Virus record (IMG/VR): IMGVR_UViG_3300035517_000038 | Span: 32,001 to 96,000 of that record | From: a virus | Taxonomy: Duplodnaviria; Caudoviricetes | Direction: 5' to 3' (one strand) | DNA: 64,000 nucleotides | Shown here: piece after piece, positions 5,663 to 51,295 of the stretch | Layout of the letters: each line of letters starts with the position of its first letter | Numbering within the stretch: the first letter of the stretch is position 1 | Made by a program: the position numbers and the translations under genes | The notes under the pieces: generated by a model | Database searches by the model: none | What the model saw: the letters and a program-made list of their open reading frames with translations, nothing else | What the model was told of the DNA's origin: nothing

Positions 5663-6412
5663 ATGGATACAGAAAATTTAAAAATAGATTATTTGAAAGG
5701 ATGTTCTATTAAAGAACTACAAGAGAAATATAAATTTAAAGGTGTAGGTACTTTGTATTATTATCTAAAGAAATTAGGTATTAATAATAGAGGCAAAATC
5801 AAACACTATGAAAATCCTTTTCTGAAAGAATCTAAAGAAAGAGATTATTGGTTAGGTTGGATATTCAGTGATGGTTGTGTAGTAAATACACCTAGAAATA
5901 AATTTGTGTACTTAGCTTGTTTGGATTTTGATATACTATTAAAATTTAAAGAGTTTTGTGGAGATAGAGCAAAACTTAATAAGTTTGAATATATTACTCC
6001 CGTTTCTAAAGAAAAAAGAGTAATGTATAAAGTAGTAATCAATTCTACAGAACTTGTACAATATTTTAGTGAAATACACCACATCTCTGGAAATAAGGCT
6101 AGTACCTTAAACCCTGATATAGAAATTAATTGGGACTTATTAAGAGGTGCTCTTGATGGTGATGGTTCCTTTAAAAAGGGTGTAGTATTAACTAGTAATA
6201 GTAAACAATGGATATATAAAGTATCTGAATTTTATAATTCCTATAATATACATTATACTATAGTAAAAGACACTGCTTATAGATTAGGGGTTTATAAAAA
6301 AGAGGATATTAGAAAAATCTATAAATACTTGTATAGTAATACTAATTTATATCTAGCTAGAAAAGAAAGAGACTTATACAGACTGGCTAAAGAGGAATCT
6401 TTAGAAAAATAG
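5663..6412 (+). CDS. Intron-encoded double-motif LAGLIDADG homing endonuclease
   Basis: YWLGWIFSDGCV and LLRGALDGDGSF motifs; N-terminal HTH-like segment. Confidence 0.9.
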   Translation: MDTENLKIDYLKGCSIKELQEKYKFKGVGTLYYYLKKLGINNRGKIKHYENPFLKESKERDYWLGWIFSDGCVVNTPRNKFVYLACLDFDILLKFKEFCGDRAKLNKFEYITPVSKEKRVMYKVVINSTELVQYFSEIHHISGNKASTLNPDIEINWDLLRGALDGDGSFKKGVVLTSNSKQWIYKVSEFYNSYNIHYTIVKDTAYRLGVYKKEDIRKIYKYLYSNTNLYLARKERDLYRLAKEESLEK

Positions 6413-6631
6413 ATTGGGTGAATTGCTGGAAAGCTAAGTAGTAATATATGCTAATCAGCAGCCAAGCACACCTTTAACAAAGTGTGAAGGTTCAGAGACT
6501 AATAGTTGAAACTCAGGAATGAGAATATAATACTAACACGAGTGCCCAACACCTAGAACAGGTGAAGATATAGTCCGATACTCTTTAGAAATAAAGAGAA
6601 TTAAAGATTAAATACTTTAATGTAACAATTG

Positions 6632-21900: not shown

Positions 21901-23039
21901 TCAATGCTAAAGAGTTAGCTAAAGCTGATGCTGCATATGGTAGAATGATTACAGGCTATCTTTCAGAGTTAGGTAGCAGAGTCAAAACTAACAAACTGTG
22001 GTTATTTGACCAAGCTATTGACTTTAAAGGTGACTACTTCAAGGATATGAAGCACCAAGATATGCGCAAGTTTGTACAAAGAGTATTGGGCAAAGAGCTT
22101 GCGTTTATAGGTCAAGAGGCTGGTGACCATTGGTTATATAACAGAACAGCTATAGCAATGGCTATGAGAACTAAGGTTAATGTTCCTGGTAAAGGGGTAA
22201 TGTCATTGTGGGATGCTCTAGAGTATGAATCTCCTAGTGGTATTAATGATTCTAGAATTAAAGAATGTAGACTACCTCAAGGTACTACTTTTGTAAAAAC
22301 AGGTGAAACTGCTAGTCTTAAGAGATTTGGTAGAGAAGTTCTAGAAATAAACCAAGAACTTTTTGGTATCTATAATGAAGAAGATGCCAATGCTGCTAAT
22401 AGAGTTATAGGTGGTAGATTGGTAATGCAGTATAGAAAATACATGAGACCTCTGTGGAATAAGAGATTTGGAGAATCTAGAAAATCTCTTATAACTGGTA
22501 GAGAGTACGAGGGTTTCTATCGTTCACTGTTTAAATTTGCATCAGCAGTAGCAAAAGAGAAAAGTTGGAAAAATAACTCTTTCATGTTAAATGCTACTGA
22601 ACATCAAAAGAGGAATTTAAGAAGAGCAGTTATGGATATTTTACAATGGGCAGTTATGGCAGCATTAGCTAATTTCTTAGAATGGCCTGATGATGATGAT
22701 AATTATATTTTCCAATTGACAGAATATCTAGTTAAAAGATTAAACAGAGAATTAGGTATGTTTGCTTTATCTCCTATAATGTTCCAAGAGTGGTACAACA
22801 CTATAACAGCCCCTGCAGCAACTTTATCTGTTGTAAAACAAGTTGGTATATTTGTAGGTTCATTAGTTAATCCTGTTAGCTGGATGGATGAAATAGAACA
22901 AGGTAGATATAAAGGTATGACTCAAGTAGGAAAAGCAGCGTATCTGTTACCTATTCCCTATTTATCTTACTACAGACAATGGGATAAATTCTATAATAGA
23001 CTTGATGAAATGTCAGATTACTATACTAGGTCTAGATAA
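18999..23039 (+). CDS. Large virion cargo protein with degenerate zincin motif
   Basis: 1346 aa, directly after the RNAP gene; EEYSH...EEAVG motif; typical crAss gene order. Confidence 0.75.
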   Translation: MASCTYAPKKGADLFYALKKELGYNKAWDVIGIINNPKFKQDFADTLTLDSEGIPTLASVMGNKYIQGFLGIDNTAKMLQREYSAVEDTMSNYKSALEQAKLFNTTSEHKNNFTAVVKNKDGKLRVTILPRTETALEEFKDQYAAHSLNRQLETILEPVGITVGMLSEAEIKAGRTGVINFAAANRMAQDTISMIRVANNRQGFEALSEEYSHLLVAAFKDTPLLERLINALAKDEEALRVILGDEYADTVNFQDGDMALVAEEAVGQLLREHFAQKVGSKSALINRFRDFVHSKYKGMDESDVAHAIVESESVLSSLVQKMLEGTLKVDPAKIETRMVQLNSLADRLDRNMELLKHMKVQEVKQAQLSGTRGTSDTLHKINVALNNSTDIAAQAVGFTEYSMEALKAFTKAQGLLNSIDRGISTQDTFRDLRQVEATIGKYGKFIKGLNDTINEEKTLRQEQFEVEIDDEGNPVYTPLDPEDVSMFAEPIPILQDDGTYEYINMYEVLSALNDISQRIASEFEAKSLSSFASFLEPVLGTEVTTEIGKNAGTGVLVTDLLKRASNDISFFDRWLDSMGQSRDPILNAFDEIVKRQNEEAKDKAQGLIRRLQKIMLDAKDKGITDFDWMFEKLSDGSLSGDYISEINRNQYHKERLEMEAALEAKYGRNPKGEELEAKKREREAWHLEHSKKSFGRWRINERKYENAAYKALSKDQREILDRLLAIKEIADKLLPAAKVDKLKAVQMRRMGNSRVLDSLAHPSRIWENIKEAVAEELLDRNDDNLTFGENNRRGLKDFSGKEYMELPALYTNRLENPNDLNRDVIGSLMAYVAMACKYEAMNEVVDALEVGRSIVNKREVQKTVGNQPMVEKLSNGFDTVTAKILQDGKTNMQAKLDDFMASQVYNRLLKDYGTFDVFGQKINKNKAVSLLLKYSSLAQLGFNALANLANVTQGVAMQNIEAAAGEFFNAKELAKADAAYGRMITGYLSELGSRVKTNKLWLFDQAIDFKGDYFKDMKHQDMRKFVQRVLGKELAFIGQEAGDHWLYNRTAIAMAMRTKVNVPGKGVMSLWDALEYESPSGINDSRIKECRLPQGTTFVKTGETASLKRFGREVLEINQELFGIYNEEDANAANRVIGGRLVMQYRKYMRPLWNKRFGESRKSLITGREYEGFYRSLFKFASAVAKEKSWKNNSFMLNATEHQKRNLRRAVMDILQWAVMAALANFLEWPDDDDNYIFQLTEYLVKRLNRELGMFALSPIMFQEWYNTITAPAATLSVVKQVGIFVGSLVNPVSWMDEIEQGRYKGMTQVGKAAYLLPIPYLSYYRQWDKFYNRLDEMSDYYTRSR

Positions 23040-23054
23040 TTAAATAGGTTCAAT

Positions 23055-23094
23055 AAAAAGGGAGGCACCAAACGGTGTCTCCCTTATTTTTTTT
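23055..23094. terminator. Bidirectional terminator at the convergence point
   Basis: A-run, GGGAGGCACC-AAAC-GGTGTCTCCC hairpin, then T-run. Confidence 0.9.
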
Positions 23095-26000
23095 ACATTC
23101 TACACTTAAGGAAAGTTTCTTTCTCTAATAGAGTCATCTTTTCAAAATCTTCTATAGTCATACCTCTTTCCTTAAGATAATCCATAGATTCTCTAGCTTG
23201 AGCATTGAGTTTAGCATGATTGTAACTTTCTAATTTTTCTTTGAAAGCACTTCTCTCAGCTATTTCTGCTTTCTTTGCATCAAGCATATTCTGAAGTTGT
23301 ACTCTTCTTTGTAAGAGTTTTGTACTTTCCTTATTCATAGCAATACCTAATTTATTTACAGATGTCCATATCTCATACCTACCTCTACACTCATCTACTT
23401 GAGTTATATCTTTATATTCCTCAGGTATAGCATTTTCAGCAGCATCAGGTGTTAAGAATCCATCTCTATAAATAACATAGCCTTTTCTAAGTTTGGCTTT
23501 AGGGTCTCTTTTGAGTTTCTCATAAGCAGCTCTCAATCTATTGTTGCTTTCTTTTATTTTATCTCTTGTAGAAGATATTTCATTCTCTATATCTTTAATC
23601 TCTTGTTCTAATGCTTCTTCTTCACTCATGGACCTTCTAAGAGTTTGTTCTCTACTCTGTTGATTTCTATTTATAGTTATAGCTTTAGAATCATATATAA
23701 TATGATGGTCGGCATTACTAAAACCAGAATGGTGCATAGCCCCTACATAACCGCCTTTAGCTACTAATAATTTAGTAACATCTGCTTGAGCTTTTCCAAC
23801 ATTAGAACCTGCAGAGCCTTTATCTAAATATTCTATAGATTGTAAACCCTCAAGTATTCTAATCTTGTCCATGGTAGTTTCTGCAGTATTATAAAGATTA
23901 TCAAAAATATCTTGAAGCTCTTTCGGTGTCATATTTTCACCCTTAGTACCTAACAGAGATTTACCATTAACTCTTGGCTCATTACCAGAAAGTGTCATAT
24001 GAGCTATAACTCTTTGATATTGCTCACTATTCTTTATTTTAGGTAGTAAAGAATATTTTATACTATCTAAAATTGACAAAGTTTCTGCATCAGGGGCAGT
24101 ATCTAATTGTAAAAATTTACCATTAGCATTTATACTAATACTGTAAGTATTACCACCATGCAAAGATTTTAATAAACTTTCTGCAACTGTTACAGCTTCA
24201 TCAATATTAGTAAAGAACGCCTCAGTTTCTTTATTAGCTTCTACAAATTTATTATATTTTTCAGAAAGTTGTCTAGCTAAGTTATTTAACTGTATTGTTT
24301 CTTTATTTTCTACAATTTTACCTTTGCTATATACACCTTCACTAAAAGAACTTTTAATAGCTTTTATCTCTGCTTTAAGTTTATCTGCATTAGTTATAAG
24401 TCTTCTGATAGTACCTAAAATACCCTTTGTTTTCTGAATACTAGCTAACTTATATTGTAAACTTTCTAAACTATCAATTCTCGAAGATAACCTTTCAACT
24501 AAATCAACAAATTCTTTAAAACTTTGAGTATCCTGCTGGAAAAATTTAGTCAAACGTTCAAAAAGTCTTGTATTCTTTTCTCCAAGATTCTGCCCTAATT
24601 TGATAGTAGCTGAGAATGTATTTAAAGCATCTACCATATCAGCTACAGATAAATTAGAGCCAGAACTTTCAAAAAGAGTGAAAGCTTTTGGTAAATACTC
24701 TCTTAATCTAGTAGCCAATGCTCTAATCCTGTACATCTGCGCTTCCACTTTACTACCAGTAAAATAAAAACCTGACGTATATGCAGTATTACCCTCACCT
24801 GTAAACAAGAAATCTGTACTAAACTCATCTATAGCAAAAGCTCCTGTACCATGATAAGTATTAATAGTATTAGTAGCTTTACTCTTATTAGCAAACTTAC
24901 CTTTTCTAATATTTCTGTAGAGTTTATTAAGTTGAGCCTCTTTACCAAATAAAGTTTTAACAAACATCTTAAGTTTACCCCAAAGTTTTCTAAAACCTTT
25001 TTGATTCTCCAGTTGCTCATAGTTCTGCATATACCTTCTAAAGCCCTCTGCAAGCTCTTCCTCAAGCTCTAATTCAGACTTCTGACCAAATACCCTAGCA
25101 GCTTCTTCATAAAGGTCTGAAAGCTCTCTATCGCTTAATAAGGTTTGGGATACATAGTGGAAAGCCTCATGATAAGCAGTACCCCTACTAGAGTTTTTAG
25201 CAAGATACACAACACCATCTTTAAACAATCCCCATACTTTATCTCCATTAGCAAGAGTTGATAATTGTGTTACACTCTCCACTAATCTAAGAGCATCTTC
25301 ATGAGCTAATTGAGGGAGCATTTGTTGTACTCTTGCAACCTCTGCTTCTATATCAGTACCTTCATAGGCTTCATCAGAAGACTCTCTCCTGAGTTTTGAA
25401 GATTTTTCATAAGCCTCTCTTGCTTTCTTTTGAATATCCTCCTCAGACATACTGCTATTAATAGTAGCATCATATGTAGCAAAGAATCTATTCTTCATAG
25501 TATTATTGAGTTTAGAAACAGCAATAACTATATCTTGAGGAACTTTATAGAAAGTTAACTTTCTAGTAGCATTTATCTTACCTCTAAGACTCTTAAGTGC
25601 TTCATTATAAGCATCTTGAGTATCATCTTTCTTAGCTTCTGCTGCTTTCGCTTTCTCTTTCTCTGCTTTCTGCTTAGCTCTTTCAGCTGCAATATCCATA
25701 GAGAAATCAAAATCATCAGCAGAAAGAACTTCACCACCATCATCATCTGTAGCAGCTTCATCTGCTGCAGGAGTAGTAGTCTTTAACTCTGTAGCAGCTT
25801 TCTCTCTGCTGGCTACTACAGTAGCATATGCAGAGTTTACAGAGTCTATAATATCTTCATCATACTTAATCTTGGTTACATCTATATTAAAATGTTCAGC
25901 GAGCTTATCATATAAAGCATCTGTAAATTCAGTACCTTCTAAGTTTTCTAAACCTTTAGATAATTCATCTACAACATTAACAAAATTAGGGTCATTAAAT

Positions 26001-32000: not shown

Positions 32001-32875
32001 TGATTATAATCATCTTGTGCTTTTTTAGTAGCTTCTTCCATAAACTCCTCTGTTTCTATGTAAGCAAGCCTATCATCATGAGCACTTTCAATGTCTTTGG
32101 TAAATTTAGCAAGAGCTTCATCATGTGTATGAGAAGCCTCTATAGAAGCCTCGCCAAAAGCAGAAAGAGTAGAACCTACCATCATTTGAGTCTGCAAACT
32201 AGCACCGCTGCCTAACTTCATAAGTTTAGACATACCTCTTAATAATGGGGCAAAAGTCATACCTCCATAAGCAGCACCTATAGAGAAACCCATATTTTTA
32301 AGGAAGTCATTGCCTATAGTATTAGCAAGGTCTCCACTAAAAATATTTTTATACCATTCTTGGTTTTGCGCTTGTTCAGTTCTATAATTAGGTAAAACTT
32401 CTTCTGACCATTGATTTATTTCATCCAGTTTTTGACTAAGAGCATTATTCCAAAAATTATTACCTGACCACTCACCATCTGCAATACCTTTATAAGCATA
32501 TTCAATAGCACCCCAAACTAAACCAGCAGTGCCATTAGCCCAAGTAGTACCTGCAAGAACTAAACCTTTAGCAGCACCGTTAGCTATTTGTGTGTACCAA
32601 CCCTGCTCTAAAGCTCTATTGTCATTGACATCTCTTAATTCACCAGGAGTAAGAATATCTTTATCATACTTACTTTTTCCTACACCATAGTAATCCTCAG
32701 TATAACCTACAGTACCAAGGTTACCAACAGCTCTCCTATCTGCTGAAGCAGCGCTCTTAAAAAGAGCTGCTGCCTCCTCAGAATAGTATTTAGGAGCTTT
32801 ATTATTAGCTTTTTGAAGGTCTCTATAATTTTGAGGACCTGTCTTAGTTATATCTTGATAGTTTTCTGTACTCAT
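23093..32875 (-). CDS. Giant virion cargo/polyvalent protein (zincin MPTase + ART-like domain)
   Basis: 3260 aa; N-terminal hydrophobic/Gly-rich segments; AYHEAFH...EEELAE; YHGT...GFYFT. Confidence 0.8.
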   Translation of the reverse strand: MSTENYQDITKTGPQNYRDLQKANNKAPKYYSEEAAALFKSAASADRRAVGNLGTVGYTEDYYGVGKSKYDKDILTPGELRDVNDNRALEQGWYTQIANGAAKGLVLAGTTWANGTAGLVWGAIEYAYKGIADGEWSGNNFWNNALSQKLDEINQWSEEVLPNYRTEQAQNQEWYKNIFSGDLANTIGNDFLKNMGFSIGAAYGGMTFAPLLRGMSKLMKLGSGASLQTQMMVGSTLSAFGEASIEASHTHDEALAKFTKDIESAHDDRLAYIETEEFMEEATKKAQDDYNQKYKEINERYDKMPQTLVNNGDGVFVNPTEQARKKELDKLNADYISRVNNARSIAKKEANDAYDKAMQRAKEDAIKVGNGVFAMNIGILATSNYFAFGKAMVGGWKPLSKIEGVSYVNSQGERTSVKQAAKGAASKAAEAGTAVDAEEFAKQLAKGSYNVDKMGKGEKFLKSTVKPFLREANEEWSQGAAGKINIDYYGTDVMNYYKSNIDEDAELETLSYMNSIINGIDANVKDSNSWFEFLIGGVTGLTGVPIISKQKGKWGLRMQGGVREELQNIRENEERAEKIVGKLNEWIQDPKNLNNFKGINRINFFSNLQKAALEVGDEKAFKDAEFASMFSGVQMFSDAGRLDDFYTILDFLDSADQASPEELAEIVKDNTRTVTIEEQREAIKEELNTIYNFLNNNKKALSIKQQNVLNKRAEKLSRKLLTPGEIQEYNEGQFAGIDINTEEGQQKAVDILQKNSKQMREVVDAYLDSKSWVDNSVGDRLSNDQANYLAFLRAQALNWEKRIDQMGDEVQKALKPILDNNIEEVQELERYREVLEAQGVKDPELDKTIAQIKFANEEFKSLLRGTASRANRKLSDEKWDDFRDGIAKYLEHNGAIFDEFEYKDILKKLEDMKALSKATKLFSDTVKEYSKNLDKLEDDIEQTKKDTATEKENKTEEEKVNKAASQSVNEKINEVIDNSESWEDIDTSAFDEFVEMGDEAFDDTTGNVSTEKQEAIKRSRKAKEILEKAKNSKKRLDDMRARGQIDEQTHQDALALLLEGLKNSEAIEDLDDLDREAFNNFENLPNRALDPSMTEEEIEALMGQRLDKAKTAIREALDEEKATEKLLENVPGTVERGPVEGRVGAEVLGEEKPSATDPVEQPAPVNAIQRTDAYDAFIKAVNNDIRAAKEQGLITEAEEVRIREMLNNIVELLAQKVSNNNLKKTIQRKYGDLFSNNYIKDLYIVFSKHIPKFVDASLTTEDIADLKLPTSTKPEIVTGGEQATQEEVTGVESIPEELLGEEIDKIHNDDKITNSQAQADEDAATGALPLKAANGTLNYWRPATTEYPIHRKRGGDRTPYWMTLDNSNEKKPIYKAVYEFLEKVGVFDRAKTGFYDRAKGPKVTFAISKELSKSAGVPVILIVNSSGEVIGDLPIETDRYPGLAEFTRKAVKEYNEKQESVEGDLVPVGGESTIAKIMVGKPDFTTNKRSVSLNQIMDNTNSQGQSTENDFMIGFSTSNGQSPVVVANSKKSRDPKLQSTIMRTSESSTAPAGTPYLLLPTSSDLRAYMPVPFSMPRWLGISEGSLIYKAVREVAEYMATLSQNSDKKDIHEAQDRLRALLNLNHDKGIITFSKDGKLLGIRNGEKIAWASLESASINTRADIIMEAIKKHNPSIRVAREHINNTITVNGQEVNYNRMIGEVAFTNMRPGANHTVDDWFVLNPIIDGQEKKAKAPKTIGTNPNQRTSTATHVDVDANTRVKIENGDYYVWDAVGNDYLLLDPTKPNHAILRAKAYGIQHGLNGQKEYDTPWGRFNTKEEKFVAPKVESAPAEANTEGLGAAVDAARQEADKIPSEAFGTPISSPTDAIDTEGLDSGIDKSNAEGRVGAEYLNGGKKVVEAKQIGNEIARKAGLLKEGEVPGGLFVLNEDSSNDGGDLNYALAKSLVLRIRQTILRANSTREELVRAINNNGNKTKANVNLIEFMAQVQQAVQNGTLTVQDATNIAIQYLKVDPATKNKLFDEFNVEKETTTTTTTSTSNTTRLLEAAIKLARLDDINITDEELLNNDSIIPAVLKTELENLKESDLKAYRETIKNIRENAKNLQKTKAVNLIKSNNEAIFELLSNWNKLSDATTGKVEQYLYSKMPEVHKALKVLQKQTDKAKYKEMLQRYIDEAKKRQENKKNSNNVIPSGSAITADNASKLTKDSVVTITIKSPRGDSEFSDTVAGVSGNYVAIYTIDGGAIIVDVNAGTAEGFSEAQVSLKYVKEEPRDSNSADEFNSFSHTLSVRNTIFNDPNFVNVVDELSKGLENLEGTEFTDALYDKLAEHFNIDVTKIKYDEDIIDSVNSAYATVVASREKAATELKTTTPAADEAATDDDGGEVLSADDFDFSMDIAAERAKQKAEKEKAKAAEAKKDDTQDAYNEALKSLRGKINATRKLTFYKVPQDIVIAVSKLNNTMKNRFFATYDATINSSMSEEDIQKKAREAYEKSSKLRRESSDEAYEGTDIEAEVARVQQMLPQLAHEDALRLVESVTQLSTLANGDKVWGLFKDGVVYLAKNSSRGTAYHEAFHYVSQTLLSDRELSDLYEEAARVFGQKSELELEEELAEGFRRYMQNYEQLENQKGFRKLWGKLKMFVKTLFGKEAQLNKLYRNIRKGKFANKSKATNTINTYHGTGAFAIDEFSTDFLFTGEGNTAYTSGFYFTGSKVEAQMYRIRALATRLREYLPKAFTLFESSGSNLSVADMVDALNTFSATIKLGQNLGEKNTRLFERLTKFFQQDTQSFKEFVDLVERLSSRIDSLESLQYKLASIQKTKGILGTIRRLITNADKLKAEIKAIKSSFSEGVYSKGKIVENKETIQLNNLARQLSEKYNKFVEANKETEAFFTNIDEAVTVAESLLKSLHGGNTYSISINANGKFLQLDTAPDAETLSILDSIKYSLLPKIKNSEQYQRVIAHMTLSGNEPRVNGKSLLGTKGENMTPKELQDIFDNLYNTAETTMDKIRILEGLQSIEYLDKGSAGSNVGKAQADVTKLLVAKGGYVGAMHHSGFSNADHHIIYDSKAITINRNQQSREQTLRRSMSEEEALEQEIKDIENEISSTRDKIKESNNRLRAAYEKLKRDPKAKLRKGYVIYRDGFLTPDAAENAIPEEYKDITQVDECRGRYEIWTSVNKLGIAMNKESTKLLQRRVQLQNMLDAKKAEIAERSAFKEKLESYNHAKLNAQARESMDYLKERGMTIEDFEKMTLLEKETFLKCRM

Positions 32876-47225: not shown

Positions 47226-47261
47226 AAAAAGAAAAGGGGAAGTAGGAGTTCCTACCTCCCC
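47226..47261 (-). terminator. Terminator after the MCP gene
   Basis: GGGGAGGTAGG-AACT-CCTACTTCCCC followed by TTTTCTTTTT. Confidence 0.85.
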
Positions 47262-47276
47262 TATTTGTTTTATTTA

Positions 47277-47431
47277 TTAACCCTGGAGAATAGAAGGGAT
47301 AATAGACATAGTTCTGGTGGGGTCAAGGACACAAATACCCAGTGTAGCCATTCTGTGGAATACAGCTGAATCTTCATCAAATGACATATTGTCATTGTCC
47401 ATTGCACCAGTGAAAGGATTACGCAGGCCCC
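47277..47431 (-). CDS. Major capsid protein exon 4 (absent from ORF track)
   Basis: (W)GLRNPFTGAMDNDNMSFDEDSAVFHRMATLGICVLDPTRTMSIIPSILQG*. Confidence 0.92.
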
Positions 47432-48190
47432 CAATCGTGTTATCGTATAGCTTTTTATCTATACTTCTATAACTTTCTTATTGTTATAGTTCAGCGTACA
47501 TTTTCAACCACGAGGGTTGTCGGATACTCTTGGAAGCATTATATTCTAATTTTCATTAGGTTCAGCTTCTACGCGTTACAATGGTAAAGTCTTTTATTTC
47601 TTTACTTTATCTCGGTATTCCCTGAGAATATCTTTACATCTTTCTCCATAACATATTTTTTTAATAGTACCAAAAGGTCTATTTAATTTTAATGCTATTT
47701 CTCTTGGATATAAATGTTGTTCAAAATACATATGATATATTTCAAATAATTGCTCCCTTGTGAAAGATATTCCATTATTTTTTAATCCTGATAAAAATGC
47801 GTGCCTTTGTTGCATTTCATCAGAAGCCCATTCAAGGTTTGTAATTCTATTATCCTCTTTATTACCATTTATATGGTTAATAGTTCTATAATTATTAGGA
47901 TTAGGTAAAAAAGCTATAGCAATTAGTCTGTGTATATATCTATAATAGTATTTACCATTATGATATAACCTAACCTGTAAATAACCGCTATTAGATTTTC
48001 TTTTACCAATGGTCATTAACTCACCTTTAATGTTTTTTATCTTTCCTGTATTTGAAATACTGTATTTAGGAAATTCTTCTATTATCTTAAATATTTCCAT
48101 AATATATGGTTTATAAAATATAATTAAATGGGTTCACCGATTTTACCCGATTATTCACTAATAGGTCGCCCTATTAGGCAGCAAGTTCAT
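47432..48190 (-). mobile_element. Group I intron 3 of MCP
   Basis: P1 CAGU|A..UGCUG with a U-G pair at the splice site; P4 AATCGGT / Q AATACCGAG; P7 GCGTA/TACGC; ends AACACGATTG. The junction gives CAG T|GG GGC (QWG). Confidence 0.92.
47594..48100 (-). CDS. Intron-encoded NUMOD4-HNH homing endonuclease
   Basis: IHRLIAIAFLPNP...INHINGNKEDNRITNLEW; C-terminal HTH. Confidence 0.92.
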   Translation of the reverse strand: MEIFKIIEEFPKYSISNTGKIKNIKGELMTIGKRKSNSGYLQVRLYHNGKYYYRYIHRLIAIAFLPNPNNYRTINHINGNKEDNRITNLEWASDEMQQRHAFLSGLKNNGISFTREQLFEIYHMYFEQHLYPREIALKLNRPFGTIKKICYGERCKDILREYRDKVKK

Positions 48191-48343
48191 ACTGATAGCC
48201 TCTGTACTCAGACTTACCCTTAACCTCACACTTGAAGATGTTGGGTTGGTCCATAGTACCAATATCCATAATATCATATCTGTAAGAGAAAGCAGGACCA
48301 CCATTCGGATGGATAATCTTATTTCTTACAGGGTCGTCGTAGT
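48191..48343 (-). CDS. Major capsid protein exon 3 (153 nt; absent from ORF track)
   Basis: (Y)YDDPVRNKIIHPNGGPAFSYRYDIMDIGTMDQPNIFKCEVKGKSEYRGYQ. Confidence 0.92.
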
Positions 48344-49205
48344 CACTATGTTATCATGTAGCTTTTTATCTACATTTCTTATACTTTATCATTGTATAAG
48401 GTCAGCATATATCATCATCTTCAAAGAAGATGTCGGACACTCTTGGCAGGATTATATTCTTTAAAAAAGTATTCACCTGCTATGCGTTACACTGATGATA
48501 GCTTTTTAATTCTATCATTTAGCACGGTATTGTCCACGCCTACCTTTATTAATTCATTATAGAGTTCGTCAGGGATTTCAATAATATCTCTAATAAAACT
48601 TTCTCTATTGAAATTTAATCTCAACCATTTCCAAGTTTTACCAGTAATTATATTTCTGATAGTTATATGACCTACATTGTATAATTTACTAATCAGCTTA
48701 ACACTAAATCCATAATTTAGCAATGTAGGTATTAATAAAACTTGCTCCTCAGATAGTGGAGATAGTTTCATGTAACTATTAGAATTATTATCCATATTAA
48801 ACTTAGCTGTGTACTCCGTGTTATATTTTTCAGTACACCATTCTAAATTCGAGACATTATTATTTTTCCTATTGAAATCTTTATGATTTACATCAGGAAG
48901 GTTTTCAGGATTAGGAAGAAAAGCTAAAGCCACCAATCTATGATTCTTAATTGTTTTTCTATTCCCTTTATCATCTACAAGAGTATTCTGTAAATACCCA
49001 CAAGAATCTTCTGTAGCAGTAACATATCTATTTACGAACTCACTGTATATAGAGCCATTGTTGTAAATTCTATAATTACTAAATCCTTTTATTTTTTTAT
49101 ATTGTTCTATCATAATTTAAATTATTAGAATAATACCTAGAAGGAGTTTACCGTTTTTGCCCGATTTTCTTAATAAATCACTTTATTAAGCCGCCCTACT
49201 AATTA
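48344..49205 (-). mobile_element. Group I intron 2 of MCP
   Basis: P AAAACGGT; Q AATACCGTGCT; P7 GCATA/TATGC; ends AACATAGTG. The junction gives CCG T|AC TAC GAC (PYYD). Confidence 0.92.
48487..49113 (-). CDS. Intron-encoded NUMOD4-HNH homing endonuclease
   Basis: HRLVALAFLPNPENLPDVNHKDFNRKNNNVSNLEWCT; C-terminal HTH. Confidence 0.92.
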   Translation of the reverse strand: MIEQYKKIKGFSNYRIYNNGSIYSEFVNRYVTATEDSCGYLQNTLVDDKGNRKTIKNHRLVALAFLPNPENLPDVNHKDFNRKNNNVSNLEWCTEKYNTEYTAKFNMDNNSNSYMKLSPLSEEQVLLIPTLLNYGFSVKLISKLYNVGHITIRNIITGKTWKWLRLNFNRESFIRDIIEIPDELYNELIKVGVDNTVLNDRIKKLSSV

Positions 49206-50055
49206 ACGGGTCTACGTCAATTTTTACACGAACACCATTAGGAGCCATGTATTCTACAAACTGGAAGCCTGCAGTAAGAGCATTAGGACTAAGCTCAGAG
49301 GAAGTGCGAGAAACAACCTTAAGAGCATCACCGTTAATAGTGAACTGAGTCCAACCATTTACTTCCTGCATTACTGCCTTGTGGAACTGAATAGCACCAC
49401 GCTCACCAGTCTTTAAAATAAAGTAACGGTCACCAAAATTAAGCTTTGAAGCAGACAGCTCTAAGAGAGCACGTTCAATCAGCTTAATAGAGAACTTGTT
49501 GTAATAATGAACATTAGATACTTCCATCTGCTCAAAGAGACCAGCACCCTGCTTGATAACTTCACCAGATTTACCGATGTTCATATATTCACCATTCTTA
49601 TTTCTATTTGAGCGACCAAAAGCAAGAATGTTATTCTTATATTCAGAGAAAGTATTTTCACATTCCCATTCTGCATAGTGCATCCAAGTGTTAGCAACAG
49701 CACCTACCTTAGTACCTGAAGGAGTTTCCTTCATAATAGGCAGACCTACTGCAAGCTTTTTATCAAGCATATCACCAGGAACCTTATGCTGGATACGAAT
49801 ATAAGACCACTCATTTCTCATAGCAATGGGAGAACTAAATCTCACATCACCAACTTTTCTCGAAAGAGATTTTTCAATGGGAGCATATTCAAAGCTGAAT
49901 TTCTCACCAGCAAGCAATCTTTCAGCAGGGATACCATCGGTGTTGCCGCCCATAAGCTCCACTTTATACACCGCGTGAGTTCCTTCCATACGAGCATTGC
50001 CTAAAATTCGCATGGGGTAAACCTCATTGAGATTGCCTACGATTACTTCGCCATC
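49206..50055 (-). CDS. Major capsid protein exon 2
   Basis: DGEVIVGNLNEVYP...SRKVGDVRF...KTGERGAIQFH...KIDVDP. Confidence 0.93.
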
Positions 50056-50938
50056 CAAATTGTTACCCTAAAGGCTCTTTATCCTTTAGCTCTATAGATT
50101 ATTTATTCTCTATAGTTCGGAGTACATTTTCATCTTGTAGAGGAATCTTTAAGATGTCGAACACTCTTGGATATATTATATTCTACGATTACCTGTTATT
50201 AACTGACTTAAGTATGATTTACTAATCTTATATTTTGTCATAATTTCTTTTCTAGATACACCAGAATTAAAATCATTTATAATATTAATCCTATCCTCCT
50301 GACTTAGCTTATAAGTTCTAGAAGTTCTTAGTTTAATATTATTTCTAGTTAATATTCCTTTTACAGTGGCTTTATCTATATTATATACTTTAGAGATAGC
50401 TCTTAAGGAGTTTCCTTTATTGTACATACTACAAATAAGTAATTGTATTTCTTTAGGTGTTTGTATTAATTTAGCACCTTTCTGACCCCCTTTAGTAGCA
50501 TTATAACCTTTATTATAAGAATCATATTGTTCTATATAATAAATCTCTCTACTATCTAATAAACATTGTTCACATTCTTCCAACTTCTCAATAGAAAAAT
50601 TATGTTTACCATATTTAAGTATAGCTCTTTTGATAGGCATTTCCAATTCATTCTTAGAACCAGTTTTACCACAATGTCTATACCACCTATCTTTAAGAGG
50701 TTGAATAGTTTGCCCTATATAAACCTTATTGTTTATTAGATTTGTAATTTTATAAATACAACCAATCATAGTTTCAATATCTACTCTCTACACTACCTTC
50801 ATATATTATTATAAAGGTTAGCACGGTATTAACATATTAGCTGAAGTAATTCTAATAAGCCTTCACCGTTTTTGTTCGATTTTCATTTGTCTATTACTAG
50901 ACAAAGTGCCAATGTTTAGCTTATGCAGCTATGGTTAT
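50056..50938 (-). mobile_element. Group I intron 1 of MCP
   Basis: P3 TCGAAC/GTTCGA; P AAAACGGTGAA; Q AATACCGTGCT; P7 GAGTA/TACTC; ends AACAATTTG. The junction gives GCT|GAT (WFA-DGE). Confidence 0.92.
50176..50769 (-). CDS. Intron-encoded GIY-YIG homing endonuclease
   Basis: CIYKITNLINNKVYIGQT...REIYYI...GYN; two C-terminal HTH repeats. Confidence 0.92.
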   Translation of the reverse strand: MIGCIYKITNLINNKVYIGQTIQPLKDRWYRHCGKTGSKNELEMPIKRAILKYGKHNFSIEKLEECEQCLLDSREIYYIEQYDSYNKGYNATKGGQKGAKLIQTPKEIQLLICSMYNKGNSLRAISKVYNIDKATVKGILTRNNIKLRTSRTYKLSQEDRINIINDFNSGVSRKEIMTKYKISKSYLSQLITGNRRI

Positions 50939-51295
50939 AGCAAACCAATCTTCATCAAACACAAGATAGAAAGGAGCAGTACCTGCACCAATCATACCTG
51001 ATTCTTCAGTAACTACCTTACCTTCCTCATCTCTAGCTTCCCACAGAGGAATATTTCTTCTATTAGAACCAGTTACTTCCCAATAGATTTCTGAATCATC
51101 ATCAAACTGCTTGGTAGAAAATTGTGAAAGGAAAGTATCAAGGGTCTTACCCTTATTCCATGCAAGAAGGTTTACCATAACATTGGTAGCCTTCTGAGGG
51201 GACTTTCTAAAAATAGAACCAAGGTGGTTCTCTTTAGTCAGACCCTTCCAATGCTGGAAACCCAGCATTTGGAATTTCTTTAATTGTCCTGCCAT
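50939..51295 (-). CDS. Major capsid protein exon 1 (spliced product 504 aa)
   Basis: MAGQLKKFQMLGFQHWKGLTKENHLG; the four exons total 357+850+153+155 = 1515 nt. Confidence 0.93.

Follow-up and report, generated by a model that had tools for sequence, protein, structure and literature searches.

Group I introns within the capsid genes of crAss-like phages have been described by Yutin et al. (2021; PMC7886860), who found them to be typical of the Delta group and reported, in a cMAG of the Zeta group, a capsid gene divided into five fragments, with intron-type domains encoded in three of the spacers; a review repeats this account of the crAss-like capsid introns (PMC10136315). The literature does not stress introns for the Steigviridae. 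Outside these phages, orf142 of Staphylococcus phage Twort carries three group I introns and undergoes exon skipping (PMC22036, cited in PMC11878797), which is also documented for phage SIOphi (PMC11878797). Here we describe a comparable locus on the minus strand of a 64,000-nucleotide (nt) stretch of viral DNA (hereafter the window), which corresponds to positions 32001–96000 of a complete 104,923-bp IMG/VR record with direct terminal repeats (IMGVR_UViG_3300035517_000038; G000:C1:32001-96000). We are highly confident that at window positions 47277–51295 the coding sequence of the sole major capsid gene of this phage is split by three mobile introns of group I, all from one IA-type ribozyme family and each with an endonuclease gene.

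Four minus-strand exons join into a single open reading frame (ORF) of 1515 nt that encodes 504 amino acids (aa) followed by a stop codon. These are exon 1 (50939–51295; aa 1–119, last base T), exon 2 (49206–50055; aa 120–402 and the first base of codon 403), exon 3 (48191–48343; 153 nt, aa 403–453, without a start codon of its own) and exon 4 (47277–47431; aa 454–504 and the stop). The translation of each exon taken by itself matches Pfam PF23898 (Crass_capsid, Crassvirus major capsid protein), with concordant PHROGs, and the matches abut along the model (positions 2–120, E 4.6e-39; 121–393, E 1.8e-114; 395–446, E 6.7e-19; 448–495, E 1.2e-13), together spanning positions 2–495 of 496, a full-length family match; two positions inside this span are uncovered because the corresponding codons are split by introns 2 and 3. 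The joined protein aligns with the intact capsid protein of cr85_1 (MT774390) free of gaps, with 371/504 residues identical and the junctions (peptides WFADGE, DPYYDD, and YQWGLR) within conserved blocks. At the nucleotide level, the uninterrupted relatives L007, L010, and cr85_1 continue straight across each junction, that of exon 1 being conserved in cr85_1 and L007. The exon coordinates and the 504-aa product that had been proposed in the first-pass annotation of this DNA are thus borne out, as is its estimate that 62% of the locus is intronic, the inserts of 883, 862, and 759 nt summing to 2504 of 4019 nt.

This crAss-like phage is probably Steigviridae-like; the nearest named capsid proteins are those of Steigviridae (72–74% identity to cr85_1), and a megablast search of the locus against GenBank phages gave no match. 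No second capsid gene was found in the complete 104.9-kb genome. Compared with L007, the exons have 82.5% nucleotide identity versus ~90% amino acid identity, without gaps, and from this pattern they look to be under purifying selection. The locus is located inside a minus-strand gene block, has a low GC content (~33%) and is followed, 15 nt past the capsid stop, by a terminator-like hairpin (47235–47262, minus strand) with a 12-bp stem and a T run. Both GC skew and AT skew flip sign at window positions 22000–24000, which fits the switch between plus- and minus-strand gene blocks typical of crAss-like genomes.

The exact borders of the inserts are fixed by intron-less alleles of relatives. We compared the locus with contigs from four metagenome runs (guessed to be DNA), the informative ones coming from relatives 85–95% identical to it. 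A relative's contig joins 47431 directly to 48191, omitting 759 nt that are exactly intron 3, and a relative's contig joins 50055 to 50939, omitting the 883 nt that are exactly intron 1. For intron 2, relatives' contigs link 48343 to 49223 through 17 differing letters, reading ...GACCCCT before ACTACG; these represent the diverged end of exon 2, and therefore precisely the 862 nt of intron 2 are missing. Since these contigs join at the exact predicted borders, the exon–insert structure cannot be due to chance. Other contigs of the same runs cross intron–exon borders (in X4, a contig covering 48267–48883 spans the 3' border of intron 2), and thus intron-plus and intron-minus alleles co-occur. 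With the borders placed in this way, the earlier observation that every 5' exon ends in U and every intron in G was found to hold at all three, with a T closing each 5' exon and a G each insert in the DNA (exon junctions GCU|GAU, CGU|ACU, and AGU|GGG for introns 1, 2, and 3, respectively).

It is evident from their core that the three inserts have the same kind of ribozyme. Within the window, the motifs AAAAUCGGGYAAAAWCGGURAA and CCAAGAGUNNNCGACA are confined to them. We aligned the core of 12 family introns, nine of them ORF-bearing (with the ORF loops deleted) and three ORF-less (MAFFT, RNAalifold), and recovered P2 (with GNRA loops), P3, P4, P5, P6, P7.1, P8, P9, and P9.1; P7, which forms the pseudoknot with P3, was added manually. 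Among these 12 introns, 44 of the 68 pairs (including P7) show compensatory double changes, and pairing is canonical in 94% of cells versus 30–43% when the partners are slid by 1–3 columns. A separate RNAalifold run on 15 contiguous 3' domains produced 19 pairs, 14 of them compensatory. Helices P2, P3, P4, P7, P7.1, and P8 are fully paired or have one mismatch in all three window introns, the strands of P7 being GAGUA/UACUC in intron 1, GCAUA/UAUGC in intron 2, and GCGUA/UACGC in intron 3. P7.1, a 5-bp helix between P7 and the 3' strand of P3, is 100% canonical with compensatory changes in 4/5 pairs and is a mark of IA introns. The architecture P1-P2-P3-P4-P5-P6-P7-P7.1-P3'-P8-P7'-P9-P9.1 is IA-type, where IA describes the architecture only and no finer subgroup such as IA2. 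We had initially read CCAAGAGUGUCCGACA as the R element (the 5' strand of P7), paired with a GAUAAC near the 3' end, an interpretation ruled out by the Rfam alignment of the ORF-less homologues and by covariation, both of which place the 3' strand of P3 there.

On the minus strand, the core elements follow the same order in each insert. Intron 1 (50056–50938; 883 nt, phase 0, between codons 119 and 120, ending in G) contains the guide GGCA (50907–50910), P2 (50888–50903), the 5' strand of P3 (50873–50879), P4 (50864–50869 with 50823–50828), the 5' strand of P7 from 50786, the 3' strand of P3 within 50157–50174, P8 (50131–50156), the 3' strand of P7 from 50124, and P9.1 (50068–50089). Intron 2 (48344–49205; 862 nt, phase 1, in codon Y403, ending in G) has the guide GCGG (49191–49194), P2 (49172–49187), the P3 5' strand (49158–49164), P4 (49149–49154 with 48524–48529), the P7 5' strand from 48485, the P3 3' strand within 48433–48450, P8 (48416–48432), the P7 3' strand from 48409, and P9.1 (48356–48375). 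The corresponding elements of intron 3 (47432–48190; 759 nt, phase 1, in codon W454, ending in G) are the guide GCUG (48179–48182), P2 (48160–48175), the P3 5' strand (48144–48150), P4 (48135–48140 with 47612–47617), the P7 5' strand from 47574, the P3 3' strand within 47520–47537, P8 (47505–47519), the P7 3' strand from 47498, and P9.1 (47445–47464).

Across the family, a guide located immediately 5' of P2 base-pairs with the final 4–6 nt of the exon. In the window introns the P1 exon/guide pairs are UGCU/GGCA, CCGU/GCGG, and CAGU/GCUG (introns 1–3), 4 bp each with a U·G at the splice site, and P10 has 4, 4, and 3 bp, respectively (GAUG/CAUU in intron 1). The guide tracks the exon at nine insertion sites (GCCCUU, GGCA/GGCG, GCCGC, GUCACC, GUCACU, GCCUC, GCGG, GUGG, and GCUG), and the U·G and the adjacent P10 are always kept. 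An automatic guide search chose spurious distant matches in introns L005_B, L006_B, and L029_B, for which the aligned GGCA motif is the likelier guide. The exon frame enters each insert for only 5–6 codons and meets a stop at 15–20 nt. These run-ins end in Ala-Ala-stop in all three cases (AITIAA*, 50921–50938; LISRAA*, 49186–49205; YELAA*, 48174–48190; minus strand), with the stop codon beside or inside the guide region, a position that could have a bearing on how translating ribosomes and the formation of P1 affect each other. Taken together, the covarying core, the U·G of P1, P10, the terminal G, and the intact endonuclease ORFs (see below) support the group I nature that had been proposed for these introns.

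Each intron contains a complete endonuclease ORF on the minus strand, with its own start, unfused to the exons and scoring above the Pfam cut-offs. The ORF of intron 1 (50176–50769; 197 aa), in the P7.1 loop, encodes a GIY-YIG and helix-turn-helix protein (PF01541, 38.8 bits against a cut-off of 22.6) that matches the catalytic domain of I-TevI (1MK0/1LN0, E 1.8e-6, residues 4–92) with the catalytic R, E, and N positions aligned, the Glu falling opposite the residue substituted in the 1MK0 chain (E75A). The L005 intron inserted at the same site has an ORF that is 91% identical to it. The ORFs of introns 2 and 3, both in the P5 loop, belong to the HNH_3 family (PF13392, cut-off 24.8 bits) and are 32% identical to each other. 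That of intron 2 (48487–49113; 208 aa; PF13392, 29.2 bits; phrog_59, E 4.8e-42) matches I-HmuI (1U3E, E 5.5e-11), and its end reads through strands of P5, P4, and P6, with the stop codon just ahead of P7. That of intron 3 (47594–48100; 168 aa; PF13392, 35.3 bits) matches 1U3E with E 1.8e-10 and reads through the 3' strands of P5 and P4 to a stop codon in the P6 loop; a NUMOD4 domain (PF07463, 33 bits) is above cut-off in this ORF and not in that of intron 2. By family and structure matches, as first proposed for one GIY-YIG and two HNH ORFs, they are predicted to be homing endonucleases of the I-TevI and I-HmuI types. The position of the cargo follows a rule across the whole intron family: the P7.1 loop houses GIY-YIG genes, the P5 loop HNH genes.

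Two other features of the window are of the same general kinds. One is the third HNH_3 ORF of the genome, at 227–349 on the plus strand (G000:C1:32227-32349; 28.2 bits, open frame of ~189 aa), 83 nt of which are 75% identical to the HNH gene of intron 2. The other, at 6365–6598 on the plus strand, is the only gathering-level Rfam match of the window, a group I intron (95 bits, E 3e-23) that belongs to another family, since the capsid-intron motifs are absent from it.

From this anatomy a splicing pathway can be proposed. The late capsid pre-mRNA would be transcribed across all 4 kb, and in each intron the guide would pair with the last four bases of the exon, leaving the U·G at the splice site. 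Free guanosine would then attack after this exon-terminal U, and the released exon end would in turn attack after the terminal G of the intron, assisted by the P10 helix that it forms with the following exon. In all, three guanosine-initiated reactions of this kind would yield the 1515-nt capsid mRNA, and ribosomes entering an unspliced intron would reach the in-frame stop after 15–20 nt. The endonucleases presumably cut or nick the intron-less capsid alleles of co-infecting relatives, with repair copying the intron in.

Several points weigh against this interpretation. RF00028, the gathering threshold of which is 50 bits, did not match the intact locus, neither at gathering nor at E ≤ 10, nor the 3' part of intron 3 alone, and the best scores on ORF-free pieces or homologues were 20–25 bits, under the cut-off. 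At gathering it was also without a match on the loci of 16 relatives. The whole model is nevertheless matched on the correct strand by the ORF-less introns of L006 (24–25 bits, E 9e-4 and 4e-4), and model positions 1–154 by the ORF-free 5' part of intron 1 (20.1 bits, E 0.0027). We attribute the sub-threshold scores to the ORF insertions and to the divergence of the family, and hence to low sensitivity of the model rather than to counter-evidence; a similar problem of Rfam detection is described for other phage introns (PMC11878797). To these points it should be added that the P1 helices of the window are short (4 exon bp), that P7 was placed by hand and the other helices were derived from the alignment also used for scoring, that none of the listed RNA runs contains the stretch, so that we infer splicing at the RNA level, like endonuclease activity and homing, from the anatomy of the locus, and that the genome is a metagenome assembly, on which the linkage of the three introns on one molecule rests.

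The last point raises the question of an assembly mosaic, in which the introns would be real and strain variants would have been threaded together, single genomes having fewer than three introns. Co-occurring intron-plus and intron-minus alleles would provide the material for this (in X4, the border of intron 2 is crossed by one contig, and the intron is missing from another), and the 850-nt exon between introns 1 and 2 exceeds the length of short reads. However, introns 2 and 3 are separated by just 153 nt, the genome of the record is complete and has terminal repeats, and multiply interrupted capsid genes were obtained in independent assemblies, with four introns on the 4.1-kb contig of L006, two in L005, and three in cr128_1 (see below), which makes such a mosaic improbable. 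We consider it very improbable that at least one of the introns no longer splices and that this is the dead capsid gene of a defective or dying lineage. The absence of the stretch from the listed RNA runs, the sub-threshold Rfam scores, and the short P1 helices would be compatible with such decay, and the HNH ORFs overlap core strands and might disturb folding; against this, all three introns have intact core helices and intact endonuclease ORFs, the exons, compared with L007, look to be under selection, this is the only capsid gene of a complete genome, and numerous relatives maintain introns of this family, at numerous sites. That the inserts are inteins, or free-standing endonuclease genes splitting the capsid into separately translated pieces, has a negligible probability, the presence of endonuclease ORFs between capsid fragments being the sole point in its favor, as the early stops preclude in-frame fusion with the exons, the ORFs start independently and no Hint domain was found in them, exons 3 and 4 have no start codons, and ribozyme covariation is seen in the inserts outside their coding parts. 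We also considered group II introns and rejected them.

Three group I introns of one family remain our reading of the locus. Using exon 2 as a query we retrieved 79 relative loci, in which introns were mapped by tblastn and a splice-site scan. About 18 of them have interrupted capsid genes, with 11 distinct insertion positions (in window-protein coordinates, 18/19, 119/120, codon 148, 189/190, codon 286, codon 292, 339/340, codon 403, codon 408, codon 454, and codon 456). In all mapped introns, one among the equally scoring borders has a T before the insert and a G at its end. The full family core or both signature motifs were found at eight of the 11 sites and some of the motifs at three more; the codon-456 introns gave no match to the ribozyme family. 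The number of introns varies from zero to four among relatives with ~82–86% nucleotide identity in the capsid exons, and L005, L006, L029, and L059 have an intron at the site of intron 1. Family members without a full-length ORF are L006:480-729, L006:1033-1373, and L004:1918-2197.

The most heavily interrupted gene is that of L006 (L006:426-4120, a 4.1-kb contig with an exon 2 that is 92% identical to ours), which has four capsid introns. Two have lost their ORF, one of 250 nt at aa 18/19 and one of 341 nt at 119/120, the latter with the start codon (ATG) and final codons of its deleted GIY-YIG gene still in place, and HNH-bearing introns are located at codons 408 and 456. They look like different stages of the cycle of homing-endonuclease gain and loss within one gene. 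The GIY-YIG ORFs of L029_B and L059_B (L029:136-1018 and L059:3120-4000) were first taken as decayed from their short open frames; we rejected decay, and consider stop-codon recoding more likely, because tblastn gives full-length single-frame matches. In L010 (L010:3644-5155) a TAG is found at the codon aligned to Q453, where the window phage and others have CAG (Gln). These sequences suggest that stop codons may be recoded in the relatives L010, L029, and L059; the window phage needs no recoding here.

The family also extends beyond crAss-like phages. The core (window 47432–47625, minus strand, and L006:480-729) has 65–80% nucleotide identity, with E values down to 5e-16, to endonuclease-adjacent regions of phages of Staphylococcus (e.g., 6ec), Mammaliicoccus, Clostridium, Clostridioides, Bacillus, and Arcanobacterium, and therefore the intron family spans phages of different host phyla. 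The occurrence of a single ribozyme lineage with re-fitted guides and two alternative endonuclease cargoes suggests that this lineage has transposed within the gene and spread across host phyla, as far as can be judged from sequence comparison. More tentatively, and with some doubt on our part, the capsid gene might be an arena in which introns transpose ectopically and endonucleases drive exclusion among co-infecting relatives, instead of a mere passive recipient of site-specific homing. By analogy with Twort orf142, in-frame skipping of exon 3 could also take place, as its 153 nt flanked by related phase-1 introns mean that skipping would keep the frame (453-aa product); in the guide region of intron 2 there is no obvious P10 pairing with exon 4.

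These results have a practical side for annotation. Exons 3 and 4 are missed or truncated by ORF calling because they have no usable in-frame start codon, which agrees with the first-pass remark that two exons are invisible to it, and since gene callers see only two capsid fragments and three "endonuclease" genes, their output would misrepresent the capsid protein. With the exact splice sites determined in this work, it can be annotated as one 504-aa protein. The locus is also a structurally worked-out case of a crAss-like phage whose most highly expressed late gene would depend on several ribozyme reactions. Zero to four introns at 11 sites, with co-occurring plus and minus alleles, are what would be expected where homing is active and marker exclusion operates among competing phages.

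In kind, the locus is not new, multiply intron-split crAss-like capsid genes having already been described, and it is ordinary for this phage group. The earlier judgment of the intron density as notable rather than unprecedented holds and errs, if at all, on the generous side, considering the four introns of L006, the three of cr128_1, and the five fragments in the literature (PMC7886860). Like the systems of Yutin et al. (2021), it shows the same gene family with multiple group I introns per capsid gene and endonuclease ORFs inside them. Unlike them, where endonuclease domains served to recognize the introns and the emphasis was on the Delta and Zeta groups, this phage is closest to the Steigviridae (Beta group), and the ribozyme core, guides, and exact splice sites have been worked out. 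The closest named case is cr128_1 (NC_055885/MT774392; Steigviridae, Mahlunavirus rarus), the capsid gene of which is likewise annotated as several fragments, the intervening genes being labeled "homing endonuclease" and "HNH endonuclease". We mapped three capsid introns in it, one ORF-less and of the same ribozyme family, at sites different from those of the window (aa 18/19, codon 292, and codon 456 versus 119/120, codon 403, and codon 454); in the record, the introns and the 18-aa first exon are unannotated.

Among better known phage introns, those of T4 td (I-TevI) and the SPO1 DNA polymerase gene (I-HmuI) are similarly IA-type, with a GIY-YIG or HNH nicking enzyme in a peripheral loop and an in-frame stop soon past the 5' splice site. 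However, they occur one per gene, in genes of nucleotide metabolism or replication, and the similarity of the window ORFs (in P7.1 and P5 loops) to I-TevI and I-HmuI is detectable only in the catalytic domains. Twort orf142 is the classic precedent for a single phage structural gene (tail tube) with three related group I introns. It differs in phage, host phylum, and gene, and splicing was shown experimentally there, as opposed to being deduced from the sequence as in this work. Its introns reportedly have no endonuclease ORFs. What is known about this kind of element is unchanged by the present finding, the mildly new aspect being that one ribozyme lineage fills most of the capsid insertion sites among close relatives.

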